A stretch of DNA of 64,000 nt from Flavobacteriales bacterium. Its GTDB lineage: Bacteria > Bacteroidota > Bacteroidia > NS11-12g > UBA955. This document shows positions 3,594 to 8,132 of the stretch, piece after piece. The stretch is taken from assembly GCA_947496375.1 (NCBI GenBank), contig CANMCY010000002.1:127116-191115 (forward strand). Reading direction: 5' to 3'. Numbering within the stretch: the stretch's first letter is position 1; every line of letters starts with the position of its first letter. The notes under the pieces were generated by a model. The model had not been told where the DNA came from. It saw nothing but the letters and a program-made list of their open reading frames with translations, and searched no databases. A program made the translations under genes and the position numbers.

Positions 3594-4238
3594 ATGCACC
3601 CTTTCACCCCCGAACAGCAAGCAGCCCAATTGCGAAAACCCCATGGCGAAGGTGCTGAAGCCATTGCCGCCTATATGCGTGAGTTAAACCGGGAACTATA
3701 TACGCATGTTGTAAATCATTTGTTGCCTGCCAAAAATCTTTCGCTGCTGGAACTGGGTTTTGGAGAAGGTATCGTGCCTGAAATACTTGATCAGCATAAC
3801 GCAACGCTGCATTATACCGGGATTGATTTCTCTGATGAAATGGTGAAAATGGCCACTGCCAAACATATTCCGGGAGCGCGTTTTGTGAGGGGCGATATAG
3901 GTCACATGCCTTTTTCCGATCAAACATTCGATGTGGTTTTTGGCATCAATGTGCTGTATTTCTGGGAAACCCCGGAAAAGGAACTATCAGAAATCCTGAG
4001 GGTGCTGAAGACCGGCGGTCTGCTAATGCTTGGCTATCGCCCCAAAACCTTTATGCAGGCCATACCCTTCACCCAATTCGGTTTTACGCTCTATGAAACA
4101 ACAGCGCTTGAAACTTTGCTGGCAAAAAACGGTTTTGAAGAAATTTCCACCGAAACAACCGAAGAGCCCGACCGTATCATCTCGGGAAAACTAAAACCGA
4201 TGCAGCACGCAGTCACCCTGGCAAAGAAACCTGCCTAA
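3594..4238 (+). CDS. Class I SAM-dependent methyltransferase
   Basis: Motif I LELGFGEG, then IDFSDEM, the acidic loop GDIGHMPFSDQTFDVVFG, and LKTGGLLML. This is a methyltransferase type 11 fold. Confidence 0.85.
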   Translation: MHPFTPEQQAAQLRKPHGEGAEAIAAYMRELNRELYTHVVNHLLPAKNLSLLELGFGEGIVPEILDQHNATLHYTGIDFSDEMVKMATAKHIPGARFVRGDIGHMPFSDQTFDVVFGINVLYFWETPEKELSEILRVLKTGGLLMLGYRPKTFMQAIPFTQFGFTLYETTALETLLAKNGFEEISTETTEEPDRIISGKLKPMQHAVTLAKKPA

Positions 4239-4281
4239 CCTTAATATACGAAAAATTACCCAATTTTCCAAATAAATCGGG

Positions 4282-4836: not shown

Positions 4837-5979
4837 ATGAGGTTTTTCCCGCTGCTTATTTGTTTAGGGCTGTCAACCCCACTGCTCTCGCAGGTAGTGA
4901 ATACCGGTTTTGTGGATACCGCCGGCGGCGAACACCTGGGTAAAATTACGCTGGGCGCCTGTGTGGATGTGTATGCCAACAGCAGCGGAGCGGGGAAAAC
5001 ATTGCCCTACATGGTTTCTTCAGCGCAAAACAACACCTTCGGCGTAAACCTCGCTATGCTCGACATTCGCTATCAGACCACGGGGATAAGAGCTCGGCTG
5101 GTACCCGCGTTTGGAACCTACATGAATGCCAACATGGCCAATGAACCCGGCACCTTGAAAAACCTGCTCGAAGCCAGCGTGGGTGTGCGGATTTCCAAAA
5201 AATTAAACCTGTGGATGGATGCTGGTATTCTGGGCTCGCCCTATACCAATGAAAACCCCGTAAGCAAAGACCAGCTCATGTATTCCCGTTCATTATCTGC
5301 CGAAAATTCACCGTATTACCTAAGCGGGGTTAAACTGGGATTGCCCCTGCGCGAAAACGTCCGTTTCTATGCCTATCTCATCAATGGCTGGCAACAAATT
5401 CAGGATCATAATGAGCAACTTTCACTGGGAACCCAACTGGAATGGCAGCCGGGTAAAAACCACATCATCAACTGGAACACCTATATCGGTAATGAAAAAA
5501 GCATTGACCACCCAAATTTCGGTACCCGCTATTTTACCGACCTCTACTGGATAGGCAAATTGGGCAAAAAATGGGATGTGTCTGCCTGCGTGTATGCCGG
5601 AGTTCAGCGCTATACCTCGCTGCGAACTGACAGTCTTATGCCCATTCCCGACCATGCTGACTATAAACAATATACCTGGTGGAATGCCAATGTGCAGGTG
5701 AAGTATGCTTTTAACTCTAAATTATCGCTTTCAGGACGTTTGGAGTGGTTTGATGATGCCAACAATATCTTTCAAACACCTATGCATCATGCTATTAAGG
5801 GGTATAGAACCGGCAGTTATGGATTTTGTTTAAACCGAAAAATTGAAGATCATGCCCTGCTGAGACTGGAATACCGTCGCTTCTTTAGCGGCAGTGATGC
5901 GATTTCTATTTACCCGTTTGACAGTGGATACCGCGACAACCTGGATGTAGTCAGCGCCTCGATGTTTGTGTGGTTTTAA
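4837..5979 (+). CDS. Outer-membrane beta-barrel, porin-like protein
   Basis: Signal peptide MRFFPLLICLGLSTPLLSQ. The composition is rich in alternating aromatic and polar residues, and the sequence ends with a C-terminal F (..FVWF). Confidence 0.6.
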   Translation: MRFFPLLICLGLSTPLLSQVVNTGFVDTAGGEHLGKITLGACVDVYANSSGAGKTLPYMVSSAQNNTFGVNLAMLDIRYQTTGIRARLVPAFGTYMNANMANEPGTLKNLLEASVGVRISKKLNLWMDAGILGSPYTNENPVSKDQLMYSRSLSAENSPYYLSGVKLGLPLRENVRFYAYLINGWQQIQDHNEQLSLGTQLEWQPGKNHIINWNTYIGNEKSIDHPNFGTRYFTDLYWIGKLGKKWDVSACVYAGVQRYTSLRTDSLMPIPDHADYKQYTWWNANVQVKYAFNSKLSLSGRLEWFDDANNIFQTPMHHAIKGYRTGSYGFCLNRKIEDHALLRLEYRRFFSGSDAISIYPFDSGYRDNLDVVSASMFVWF

Positions 5980-6034
5980 AGATGATACAACTGCTTGGCT
6001 AAAATGTGGGGAGACAAACTTCCATTCAACTCCC

Positions 6035-6105
6035 AAAACCCCGAAGGGGTGGCATTATTATAGCACCAACGGTGCGGTAAATCCCGAACCCCGTAGGGGT
6101 GACAT
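6035..6105. repeat. About 70-bp structured repeat, copy 1. It holds three short hairpins: ccccGAAgggg, gcaccAACggtgc and ccccgTAgggg.
   Basis: Direct repeat of 7399..7470, about 90% identical by eye. Each hairpin is a perfect 4-5 bp GC stem with a 3-nt loop. Confidence 0.8.
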
Positions 6106-6127
6106 AAAAAACAATGTTGTATATTTA

Positions 6128-6157
6128 TAAAAAAACCCGAAGTCGGGCGACTTCGGG
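6128..6157 (-). terminator. Rho-independent terminator for the lipoprotein gene 6191..6571 on the minus strand
   Basis: cccgaagtcg-gg-cgacttcggg is a perfect 10-bp inverted repeat. On the plus strand an A7 run precedes it, which is a T-run on the minus strand. It sits 30 nt downstream of the gene's stop. Confidence 0.7.
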
Positions 6158-6190
6158 CTGTGTGTTAGCTATTGAGCTATTATGGTTTAG

Positions 6191-6571
6191 TTATTCTAAT
6201 GTTAATGTGAGTTCCAAATCTTTGCCTGCTACTATTTGAATTTGACCTTCTCCATAATATTCATCACTGCCTACAACATGATAACAGTCGTAATAATAGT
6301 TTCCAGGATTTAACTGTCCAAAATTTGCTTGGCCATTAGAATTAGTTACTTTTTCTTGTAAATAAATTGAATTGTCAAGATTTGCTTGAGATGTAGCAAG
6401 TCCAACATCAACACCTGTTAAAAAACCTGTAGAACCCTCTAGTTTAACTTTAACAACCAAACCACCCGTCGTAGGTGTTGGAGCAGGATCTTCTTTGGAA
6501 CAAGAATTTAGAGAGAACGTACCCATTAGCAGCACTAATGCCAAACCAAGATTGTAAATTGTTTTTTTCAT
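6191..6571 (-). CDS. Small lipoprotein of 126 aa with a single carboxypeptidase-regulatory-like or transthyretin-like beta-sandwich domain
   Basis: Signal peptide plus lipobox (LMGTFSLNSC). The pattern GLVVKVKLEGSTGF..VTNSNGQANFGQLNPGNYYY resembles CarbopepD_reg-like domains. Codon usage is AT-rich compared with the neighbouring genes. Confidence 0.6.
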   Translation of the reverse strand: MKKTIYNLGLALVLLMGTFSLNSCSKEDPAPTPTTGGLVVKVKLEGSTGFLTGVDVGLATSQANLDNSIYLQEKVTNSNGQANFGQLNPGNYYYDCYHVVGSDEYYGEGQIQIVAGKDLELTLTLE

Positions 6572-6721
6572 GTTTTGAGTTAATATTTAATTGTTTTCAA
6601 CACTAACCCATAACAATAAGAATTCAAAACACGTGTAGATTGTATTTTCCACTTTTTATGAACACTACCCTATTTGTTGTGCTTTTGTCGTTTTAATTGT
6701 ATTATAATTTAGTTTAACCCC

Positions 6722-7018
6722 ATGTTTGCACACAAAACCACCGAATACAAGCAGCCGGGGAACATCGGCAATAAAATCAAAATGGTGCGTGAAAGCATAA
6801 ACCTCTCTCAGGAGTACGTAGCTACCAAACTGAATATCAGCCAGCAAACTTACTCCCGTATAAAGAAAAATCTGGATAATATTTCCGTTTCACGCCTGCG
6901 TGAATTATCCTCCATTCTGGGTGTGACGATCAATACGCTGGTAGGCGAAGATGACTTGTGTATACAACAAAATTACAACCAGAAGGGTGGCAATGCCGGC
7001 ACTGTAATGAATGTGTAA
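6722..7018 (+). CDS. XRE-family helix-turn-helix transcriptional regulator. It may be truncated, because an in-frame TAA is followed by a 33-codon helical extension.
   Basis: HTH_3 signature NKIKMVRESINLSQEYVATKLNISQQTYSRIKKN. After the TAA at 7016-7018 the same frame continues GPTDSERKVYEERINDLKQQLEAMQKLLLALSK* to 7120. Confidence 0.7.
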   Translation: MFAHKTTEYKQPGNIGNKIKMVRESINLSQEYVATKLNISQQTYSRIKKNLDNISVSRLRELSSILGVTINTLVGEDDLCIQQNYNQKGGNAGTVMNV

Positions 7019-7123
7019 GGCCCGACAGACAGCGAGCGAAAAGTGTATGAAGAACGCATCAACGACCTGAAACAACAACTGGAGGCCATGCAGAAGCTGT
7101 TGCTGGCGTTGAGTAAGTAGTGT

Positions 7124-7208
7124 GGTTTATTGGTTCATCAGTTTATTGGTGTATTGGTTTATTAGTCTATTGGTGATGTGCATTTACCTAATAAACCAAT
7201 CAACAATT
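7124..7208. repeat. Iteron-like cluster. It has four or five direct TTTATTGGT repeats plus a 13-bp inverted repeat, attggtttattag ... ctaataaaccaat.
   Basis: Direct reading of the sequence: gtttattggttcatcagtttattggtgtattggtttattagtctattggtg....cctaataaaccaatcaacaat. Confidence 0.6.
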
Positions 7209-7235
7209 AAACTGGTTACAATTAATACAGCAGGG

Positions 7236-7270
7236 TTGTGAAATAAAACCCAAAGTCGGGAGACTTCGGG
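7236..7270. repeat. GC-rich hairpin module, copy 2: ggttgtgaaataaaa followed by cccaaagtcggg-a-gacttcggg.
   Basis: Near-identical to the hairpin at 6136..6157. The ggttgtgaaataa motif occurs again at 7488..7500. Confidence 0.6.
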
Positions 7271-7322
7271 TAGCGGTGCAAAGTAGCTGGGATAACGCAG
7301 CCTTAGGGCAGTGGATGCATTA

Positions 7323-7341
7323 ATGCCACCCCTTCGGGGTT
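7323..7341. repeat. Inverted partial copy of repeat hairpin 1 (atgccaccccttcggggtt)
   Basis: It is the reverse complement of the aaccccgaaggggtggcat core found in both 70-bp repeat copies. Confidence 0.6.
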
Positions 7342-7398
7342 CCTATTACCGTCTATTTGGTTATTATTATCATTCCGCTCCTCCGGAGCTGTTTACAA

Positions 7399-7470
7399 AA
7401 AAACCCCGAAGGGGTGATATTATTATAGCACCAACGGTGCGATACATCCCAAACCCCGAAGGGGTGGCAT
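7399..7470. repeat. About 70-bp structured repeat, copy 2
   Basis: aaaaccccgaaggggtgatattattatagcaccaacggtgcgatacatcccaaaccccgaaggggtggcat. It is a direct repeat of 6035..6105. Confidence 0.8.
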
Positions 7471-7505
7471 ACATTCAATTGAGCTAGGTTGTGAAATAAG
7501 ACCTT

Positions 7506-8132
7506 TCAGTCCTGCATTCCCTTTCCCTGTAAAATCCTGTCTCTGTTTTTGGCAATTCTGTCAATGCGGGTTTGGGATTGTTTGGCACCCCCAAAATAGA
7601 GGATATAGCCCCTTTGCCTGCCCGGTGTTAATGCAAAAAACGCTGAAGACAGCTCTGCATCCGATTTGATGGCCTGCTGGAGCTCCTCACACATGGGCTG
7701 CTGTTCCGGTGAGTTGAAAGTCACTTTCTGTCCGGATTCTTCTATCAAAATGGCCTCTTTGAGGTAACCCATAATACTGGAAGACTGCGCTGTTACCTCT
7801 TCAGGCGCCGTAAACTTCATGTATCGTGCTGACTGACTGTTCTCACCGGGTTTCACCAGAAGATTTTCCGGATCTTTCATCAGTGCGCCTTTTAAGAAAC
7901 TGAGGGTGGCACAGCCCTTTAATACCCCCAGCAACACTACATTTTTCTTTCCTGTCACATAGCAGGGCACGCCCCACTTACGGGTTTCTGTGAGACCGCT
8001 TTCAAGCACCAGGTCCCTCAACAATATCAACTCATCCCGCCAGGTGTGAACCTTACATGCCGGCGTTCCTCCAAGCGAGCAGCGTCCGCAACCCTCCATA
8101 AAAAAAACGTCTGCTTCGGAAACGGCTCTCAC
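7506..8132 (-). CDS. YdeI/OmpD-associated family protein (DUF1801-like)
   Basis: C-terminal signature FFALTPGRQRGYILYFGGAKQSQTRIDRIAK together with an N-terminal CGRC..C motif. Confidence 0.65.
   Translation of the reverse strand: MRAVSEADVFFMEGCGRCSLGGTPACKVHTWRDELILLRDLVLESGLTETRKWGVPCYVTGKKNVVLLGVLKGCATLSFLKGALMKDPENLLVKPGENSQSARYMKFTAPEEVTAQSSSIMGYLKEAILIEESGQKVTFNSPEQQPMCEELQQAIKSDAELSSAFFALTPGRQRGYILYFGGAKQSQTRIDRIAKNRDRILQGKGMQD

Follow-up and report, generated by a model that had tools for sequence, protein, structure and literature searches.

A possible low-copy family of REP/BIME-like hairpin repeats between converging porin and omdA genes of a Flavobacteriales bacterium

Introduction

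What kind of element is a repeat of three small GC hairpins that stands twice between two converging genes of a Flavobacteriales bacterium, and how is it maintained there? The question was raised by an earlier note on a window of 64,000 nucleotides (the whole stretch of DNA analysed: assembly GCA_947496375.1, contig CANMCY010000002.1, positions 127,116 to 191,115), which had described a highly structured repeat family as a possible REP/BIME-like element or small RNA. The answer offered here is tentative: the repeat, called R below, may be a module of a small low-copy hairpin-repeat family that is built like a REP/BIME cluster and tied to one or two loci.

Structure of the repeat and its inverted partner

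R is a direct repeat of 72 nt on the plus strand, with R1 at 6035-6106 and R2 at 7400-7471 showing 90% identity. Both copies consist of three hairpins with 5-bp GC stems and 3-nt loops. In R1, these are ACCCC-GAA-GGGGT (6038-6050), GCACC-AAC-GGTGC (6063-6075) and ACCCC-GTA-GGGGT (6088-6100), with predicted RNA energies of -7.3, -5.6 and -7.3 kcal/mol, respectively; the hairpins of R2 lie at 7403-7415, 7428-7440 and 7453-7465. The central 18-mer TATAGCACCAACGGTGCG occurs twice against 0.03 occurrences expected by chance, and all five matches to the arm motif CCCCGAAGGGGTG with up to two mismatches fall inside 6039-7466. A covariance model built from nine distinct copies of R was run over the 64-kb window with filters off. 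It returned R1 and R2 at about 100 bits each (100.6 bits with E 3e-25, and 102.6 bits) together with a diverged inverted copy, R', on the minus strand at 7320-7395 (40.6 bits, E 4e-9), and no other match. Taken alone, R has a stability only moderately above that of shuffled sequence (z between -1.3 and -3.3 as RNA, about -2 as DNA).

The hairpins of R' are an arm at 7328-7340 and GCTCC-TCC-GGAGC at 7377-7389. The latter replaces the first hairpin of R, while the last hairpin of R' is the inverted fragment of hairpin 1 that had been reported previously; positions 7321-7341 are 100% complementary to 6037-6057. The R' block TATTATTATCATT(C/T)CGCTCCT(C/T)CGGAGCT at 7362-7390 is the same in all 10 aligned units apart from its two C/T positions. 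R' and R2 together (7316-7477) make a palindromic doublet of 160 nt, bounded by terminal inverted repeats (26 nt, 88%), which folds as a single long hairpin (plus strand: -67.7 kcal/mol, z -7.0; the minus strand gives a similar result). This R'(-)-R(+) doublet is present in every genome examined.

The description in the earlier note holds up well at this level. The repeat pair and the three hairpins per copy were recovered with coordinates within 2 nt, as were the inverted fragment, the separate GC-hairpin modules at 6136 and 7249 and the short motifs scattered around the copies, of which GGTTGTGAAATAA lies at 7234 and 7487 and ATTGAGCTA at 6171 and 7478. The mosaic, BIME-like organisation it had proposed is likewise borne out: the hairpin arms alternate in orientation, the linkers are fixed and the hairpin modules are shuffled between genomes.

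On its own strand (window 7373-7353, minus), R' reads GGAGGAGCGRA-ATG-ATA-ATA-ATA in every unit, which gives a mini-ORF M-I-I-I with three rare AUA codons. As the remaining peptide and its length vary among the copies (from 6 to more than 20 codons), this is probably not a real gene. Several other functional readings of the repeat were rejected. A small protein-coding repeat disagrees with copies lying in different frames of chance ORFs, a stop codon in the L001 copy and 1-nt indels between genomes. A sigma-54 promoter (TGGCAT-N5-TAGCA in R1, with GG-N10-GC spacing) was dismissed because the GG is not kept in other copies. The template/variable pair of a diversity-generating retroelement was set aside, since the changes that separate R1 from R2 are not specific to adenines, and no reverse transcriptase was found. 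The RNA array of a type III toxin-antitoxin system was discarded for want of a co-oriented gene after the array.

Genes of the islet and its surroundings

The flanking genes converge on the repeats: a BBP2-family porin gene at 4837-5979 (plus) and a gene for a DUF1801/OmdA protein at 7506-8132 (minus). The 1.3 kb between R1 and R' has a G+C content of 34-40%, compared with about 48% in the surroundings, and contains an islet: two divergent genes, together with a promoter region and terminators. The first gene (6191-6571, minus) encodes a predicted lipoprotein of 126 aa, recognised as an ORF with a signal peptide and Cys. Its Pfam match to SpaA is weak (E 6e-4, under the curated cut-off; SpaA/prealbumin-like fold), and an identical protein occurs on 6 other contigs, each time at the porin/omdA locus. 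The second gene (6722-7018, plus) encodes an XRE-family HTH regulator of 98 aa (Pfam HTH_3, E 1e-13). It is ended by TAA at 7016-7018, the remaining frame being open to about 7120, and its orthologues in L001 and L073 have 132 aa and CAA where the window has TAA. In the close relative L006 (reverse strand, about 2100), the regulator has another premature stop, TAG, and 104 aa. The C-terminal coiled-coil part of the regulator is lost by two independent truncations in these near-identical strains, the window and L006.

The islet also includes short tandem repeats of the TTTATTGGT type at 7123-7214 (TRF periods 8, 16 and 24), which together with an inverted copy make a long AT-rich hairpin with 27-nt arms, 85% complementary. 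Lying just 3' of the regulator gene, this hairpin resembles iterons or an operator array; L001 carries the module twice (6080-6330), and beside regulator homologues at other loci it is absent. Distant regulator homologues (60% identity) in L050-L057 (3431-4399) are again divergent to a small lipocalin-like lipoprotein gene, so that the pair of small lipoprotein and XRE regulator seems to be a conserved two-gene module at different chromosomal sites.

Two large GC hairpins, at 6136-6157 and 7249-7270, resemble minus-strand intrinsic terminators. The first of them, the T hairpin (CCCGAAGTC-GGGC-GACTTCGGG; minus), marks the left end of the islet; the terminator scan gave it 11 pairs and the tail TTTTTATAAA, and its predicted energy is -16.0 kcal/mol. 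With a T-run behind it on the minus strand, it is likely, according to this prediction, to end transcription of the lipoprotein gene as an intrinsic terminator. The terminator-like T' module (7234-7276, minus) marks the other end, on the right, and is made of GGTTGTGAAATAA, the hairpin at 7249-7270 and a TAGCGG tail; this module is found alone 3' of R2 in L003, L073 and L001. The start of a further spacer/T module, ATTGAGCTA followed by GGTTGTGAAATAA, stands at 7478-7499 (plus), where the hairpin is deleted in the window lineage, the module being intact in L003 and L073. The canonical terminators that are present, the T hairpins, serve minus-strand transcripts, and the terminator scan found no canonical U-tract terminator for the porin gene on the plus strand.

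The islet at 6136-7270 has one 22-nt perfect hairpin (CCCGAAGTC-GGGN-GACTTCGGG) at both ends, and therefore 9-bp terminal inverted repeats; its right-hand flank TAGCGGTGCA also occurs in the islet-free allele. The islet could move as a unit bounded by T-type hairpins. In L001 (4064-4125), a 17-nt unit, GGGAGACTTCGGGTAGC, stands three times after the hairpin, an expansion of the slippage type that involves the 3' half of this T hairpin with its GTAGCGG tail. Another strain-variable spot lies 2 kb upstream in the same relative, where about 1.1 kb (997-2128) between the methyltransferase and 3-HAO genes is without a counterpart in the window (about 4216-4243).

No Y1 or other transposase, integrase or other recombinase was found among the 48 window ORFs of at least 100 aa that were scanned, and no Y1 transposase in the gene tables of the related loci that were fetched. 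ARAGORN finds no tRNA or tmRNA in the window, and a tRNA, tmRNA or tRNA-derived attachment site was rejected on this ground.

Occurrence of the repeat at other loci

A pattern scan for hairpin 1 followed by hairpin 2 in 185,579 genomes, one per species, returned two MAGs and one chance match within a Burkholderiales gene. In both MAGs, all matches are situated at the orthologous porin/omdA site. A metagenome scan with a 22-mer of R' gave one contig, L005, and amounts to a weak census, as the JGI contigs L006 and L073 contain the 22-mer yet were missed and the collection is incomplete. Exact-protein look-ups added about 30 further versions of the locus from lake metagenomes. Over 339 kb of related loci, the covariance model matched at the porin/omdA locus and L005 only; it found no R near 29 loci of pspC homologues or near 18 loci encoding homologues of the islet regulator. 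Three pattern scans of viral contigs gave 0 matches, BLAST against phage records was without a match, and plasmid records gave only a low-complexity match to the TTTATTGGT repeats, so an origin from phage or plasmid was rejected. A literature search with the motif strings found nothing relevant. That R is a dispersed family is not supported, with only R1, R2 and R' in 64 kb, two sites in 339 kb and the orthologous site in two MAGs.

Many metagenome contigs end inside R1, R' or the L005 array (L004, L005, L007, L061-L066). Either the repeats or differences between strains at these sites regularly interrupt short-read assembly of the porin/omdA locus.

L005 is a freshwater Bacteroidota contig in which a full R stands 30 nt behind a 72-aa PspC-domain gene, with at least 4 tandem units of about 135 nt after it, each in the order spacer, R', one arm. 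The array reaches the contig end (TRF period 135, 3.9 copies), and its arm(-) and arm(+) alternate with a period of 135. In the relatives L058, L060, L073 and L003, the stretch of about 100 nt that separates R1 from the porin stop codon aligns, with about 80% identity, to the 60 nt at the 3' end of the L005 pspC CDS. The alignment score of this pseudo-pspC stretch is 49-56, compared with 13.6±2.1 for shuffles, 0 of 1000 of which reach it (z about 17-20). The window has a remnant of the pseudo 3' end of a pspC-like gene at 5995-6006 (plus), about 43 nt that are intact in relatives being deleted; the window segment before R1 scored 13 against L005 pspC, which is not significant. Other pspC homologues adjoin a converging DUF6029 gene and leave no space for an array.

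Because the relatives keep about 60 nt of the pspC 3' end before R1, the porin-side locus is, judged by these alignments, a segmental copy of the pspC 3' end with its array and not the product of a precise transposition. R lies between converging genes, 55-100 nt downstream of the stop codon of the co-oriented one, and the spacing in L005 is 30 nt. Since the two loci are related by segmental copy, their shared orientation behind a gene is not independent evidence.

The segmental copy bears directly on whether R belongs to a genuine REP/REPIN family, in which the R'-R doublet would be a non-autonomous element moved as ssDNA by a RAYT-type Y1 transposase encoded elsewhere and the present cluster would be one of many. 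Such a family would explain the inverted-arm doublet with its spacer of 60-110 nt and single-hairpin fold, the tandem clusters in alternating orientation and the frequent assembly breaks within R. It also agrees with the C-GNA-G loops, of a type known from DNA mini-hairpins (PMC3201870), and with the RAYT subclasses 2.4 and 2.6 of Bacteroidetes, which have 'atypical' flanking structures (PMC6006769). However, a second locus that arose by segmental copy carrying pspC coding sequence is not what precise transposition would leave. One locus was found in 64 kb and none in 339 kb of related loci beyond the two known sites, the combination of hairpins 1 and 2 occurs at the porin/omdA locus only in two whole MAGs, a GTAG or CGTC foot is absent beside the arms, and neither the 48 scanned window ORFs nor the genes of the fetched loci include a Y1 transposase. 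This explanation is considered unlikely, and the low-copy family tied to one or two loci is preferred to it.

Alleles of the locus and recombination among relatives

The islet, 1.2 kb in size, is situated within the spacer that separates an R from the following R', and the relatives differ in what this spacer holds. In allele a (L060), there is a single, chimeric R, with the left flank of R1 joined to the right flank of R2 and an intergenic region of 212 nt. Allele b (L058/59, L067-72, L003) has R1, a 37-nt spacer, R' and R2. In allele c (the window, L006-10, L073/74), one islet replaces the core of the spacer. Allele d (L001) has two islets, each followed by its own R'-R; their lipoprotein genes differ, and the first regulator gene is cut to 12 codons. 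These differences separate close relatives: between the window and islet-free L058, the porin gene is 99.65% identical, the downstream sequence is 99.3% identical, and both R1 and R2 are identical.

The empty allele has a 19-nt spacer core that does not occur in the islet (best match with 6 mismatches) and that resembles the spacers of the L005 array, so the empty and the islet-bearing allele are alternative old states and not the result of a recent simple deletion. The divergence of the islet is about that of its flanks, with 89% colinear identity to L073 and 88%, against 84-86% for the flanks, to L001. The islet is consequently old and vertically inherited, and its recent horizontal transfer was rejected. 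An invertible segment between the 21-nt perfect inverted repeats at 6037-6057 and 7321-7341 was likewise rejected, as the islet has the same orientation in 9 of 9 islet-bearing loci.

The types of R are mosaic, and variants of linkers and loops swap between the R1 and R2 positions across lineages, for example in L073. The left half of R1 in L006 is of the L005 type and has a GCA loop, found at the porin locus otherwise only in the identical L009 copy. These swaps and the L005-type half point to conversion between R copies, one of them outside the porin locus; the L006 conversion tract implies at least one further R copy elsewhere. As L060 and L073 show, two alternatives fill the 30 nt immediately before R1, either GGGGAGACAAACTTCCATTCAACTCCC, as in the window, or GAGGGGGTGGTTTCAAATCCACCGCC with a small hairpin of its own. 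Their combination with differing porin alleles is a sign that the population recombines.

The presence of zero, one or two islets at one site, with an R'-R doublet after each, suggests a further reading. The doublets might be sites of a site-specific recombinase, and the locus an integron- or dif-module-like cassette platform that captures islets of lipoprotein and regulator genes. Cassettes A and B of L001 with their different lipoprotein genes, and an empty allele that is no simple deletion product owing to its 19-nt core, would suit such a platform. The islet boundaries, though, lie in the spacer and at the T hairpins and not within R, and the islet is as diverged as its flanks, hence old and vertically inherited. 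Homologues of the regulator elsewhere have no R nearby, RYYYAAC/GTTRRRY cores are absent from the doublet ends, and the window has no recombinase. Moreover, the palindromic cores have a 3-nt centre, which is too short as the crossover region of a tyrosine recombinase. Capture by site-specific recombination is accordingly rated as highly improbable. Scarcely to be expected either is its bolder form, in which the doublets would be recombination sites of an undescribed cassette platform of freshwater Bacteroidota, lipoprotein and XRE-regulator islets being stacked or exchanged at a fixed site, and C-GNA-G mini-hairpins being read by a recombinase or ssDNA enzyme encoded elsewhere. Homology between the R copies of a low-copy family is the preferred source of the allelic differences.

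Conservation of stems and loops

In the alignment of 13 distinct R copies, variation affects 1 stem column out of 30, compared with 18 of the 33 columns in loops and linkers (Fisher p 5.7e-6); two of the contributing loci were retrieved by a pattern that fixes the stems of hairpins 1 and 2, for which only one matching copy was needed and 5 of 5 matched. The copies obtained by other search routes agree with the stem conservation seen at those loci, and the stems appear to be under purifying selection. All 195 stem cells of the 13 copies are paired, and the sole variable stem column is a C to U change, which leaves a G-U pair on the plus strand. R and R' show 83-99% identity across lineages, about as much as the coding flanks and more than the adjacent pseudo-pspC stretch (71-86%).

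The minisatellite reading takes R as functionless, with slippage and unequal crossing-over amplifying a hairpin-rich unit and gene conversion keeping it uniform, and no selected role. Many of the processes it calls for are visible: the tandem amplification and higher-order repeats of L005, the 17-nt slippage copies in L001, frequent conversion and chimeras, and near-identical strains that differ in copy number. Conversion, however, homogenises every position equally and cannot produce the contrast between stem and loop or linker columns. If mutation is assumed to be AT-biased, G+C-rich stems would be the more mutable part, if anything. The conservation of R and R' at the level of the coding flanks, compared with the lower identity of pseudo-pspC, also speaks against an unselected unit. 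A minisatellite alone is a doubtful explanation, and stems kept by selection in a low-copy hairpin family fit these data better.

Read on their own strand, the loops are C-GAA-G, C-GTA-G or C-GCA-G in the arms and C-GGA-G or C-GAA-G in R', mostly with a change of the middle base and with one ATA exception; this pattern rests on four to six independent events and is a lead only. Triloops of the type d(C-GNA-G) give unusually stable DNA mini-hairpins (PMC3201870, PMC13037366). Not only the pairing of the stems is invariant but also their sequence, and on these alignments recognition by a protein would fit at least as well as a purely structural role.

Compensatory stem changes, which the earlier note had proposed as a check, were found in 0 of 15 pairs in the 13 R copies, where invariant stems make the test one without power, and in 0 of 25 pairs in 10 R'-arm units. 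The long-range pairs between arms are broken in the L005 units, in which the arms are mutated. That note had looked both to further copies and to such substitutions: the copies do exist in relatives, and the compensatory substitutions do not.

The same observations weigh on the suggestion that the R'-R doublet, or R by itself, represents a structured non-coding RNA, either a small RNA or one derived from a 3'-UTR. The predicted structure is strong (z -7.0 for 7312-7480; plus-strand z of -2.1 and -3.3 for R), the sole stem substitution retains a G-U pair on the plus strand and the position behind a gene is conserved. Nevertheless, covarying pairs number 0 in the 13 R copies and 10 R'-arm units, the long-range pairs do not survive in L005, half of the hairpins have the opposite orientation, both strands fold about equally well and a convincing promoter is absent. 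Rfam 15 has zero matches at gathering thresholds in the window; the best sub-threshold one, Acido-Lenti-1, reaches 17 bits against a gathering score of 37. Nothing points to a discrete small RNA, so this half of the original proposal is not upheld, and the RNA explanation as a whole is very improbable.

Proposed history and role

The low-copy hairpin family, if correctly recognised, would consist of the arm A-ACCCC-GNA-GGGGT-G-NN-AT, the central GCACC-NNN-GGTGC and the inverted, diverged R' with GCTCC-TYC-GGAGC. In L005 it forms a 135-nt tandem array immediately after a pspC-like gene, and the site between the converging BBP2-porin and DUF1801/OmdA genes is a segmental copy of that flank. The R copies recombine with and convert one another, and close relatives carry zero, one or two islets. 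At the DNA level, the conserved modules may act as homology tracts through which the islet is lost, duplicated or exchanged between strains.

The hairpins themselves would be the selected feature, and the R cluster probably acts like a REP cluster, as a 3' hairpin barrier and recombination substrate. Its most likely role may be at the 3' ends of the two converging units, where it would block 3' exonucleases or read-through. A role as terminator is opposed by the R hairpins being of 5 bp and having no U-tracts, i.e. they are not canonical terminators. The binding of a hairpin- or sequence-specific protein would be the second option.

If this reading is right, the locus is a small, clean natural example of how extragenic hairpin repeats persist, with stems under selection and with spread by tandem amplification, segmental copying and conversion. 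It would also illustrate how such repeats destabilise a fixed chromosomal site, so that near-identical strains come to differ by an islet of a surface lipoprotein and a regulator. Furthermore, a REP/BIME-like architecture could then exist at very low copy number in Bacteroidota, where genome-wide repeat finders would miss it. The practical consequence is modest: the repeats break metagenome assemblies at the porin/omdA locus and mark a strain-variable site.

Comparison with known repeat systems

The clusters of integron attC sites, CALIN, and the pdif modules of Acinetobacter resemble the R locus in having gene modules parted by structured imperfect palindromes, the number of which varies between strains. 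Unlike these, the islets here have their own promoters and terminators and two divergent genes, and their breakpoints lie outside the repeats; attC or dif core motifs are absent at 7316-7477 and an integrase is absent from the window. MITEs such as Correia/NEMIS and ERIC are comparable to R'-R as intergenic and possibly co-transcribed elements, R'-R having about 160 nt and 26-nt terminal inverted repeats. The present copies are, by contrast, low in number and tandem rather than dispersed, and no target-site duplication is recognisable by eye at 7316/7477.

The REPIN-RAYT system (Bertels and Rainey; subclasses 2.4/2.6 in Bacteroidetes, PMC6006769) is closer, as it shares the inverted arm doublet in one long hairpin, the tandem clusters and the loops of the ssDNA-hairpin type. 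R differs from it in that no RAYT gene was found (48 window ORFs and the fetched loci), no dispersal was seen and the second locus arose by a segmental copy together with a neighbouring CDS.

The REP/BIME of Enterobacteria and Pseudomonas are the closest in architecture. Like R, they are short GC-rich palindromes, extragenic and placed at the 3' ends of converging genes, with alternating orientation, fixed linker motifs and mosaic, variable clusters prone to recombination. The R arm, A-ACCCC-GAA-GGGGT-G-NN-AT, is an imperfect palindrome of 19-21 nt in extragenic DNA, in keeping with the REP/BIME unit size of 20-40 nt. Copy number is a point of difference: REP/BIME have more than 100 dispersed copies per genome, whereas the R family was found at one or two loci, as three units at one site in 64 kb and as one locus per MAG. 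The other is the foot, which in REP is a conserved GTAG or CGTC tetranucleotide (PMC3733652). R has none, its arms being flanked 5' by AAAA/GGAA and 3' by TG-NN-AT with GTAG present only as the 3' tail of the separate T hairpin, and each unit has three different hairpin types. The REP/BIME-like label of the earlier note thus stands for the architecture, i.e. palindromes, alternating clusters and linkers, and not for copy number or the GTAG/CGTC tag. In this comparison, R is an undescribed, modest variant of the REP/BIME-like architecture.
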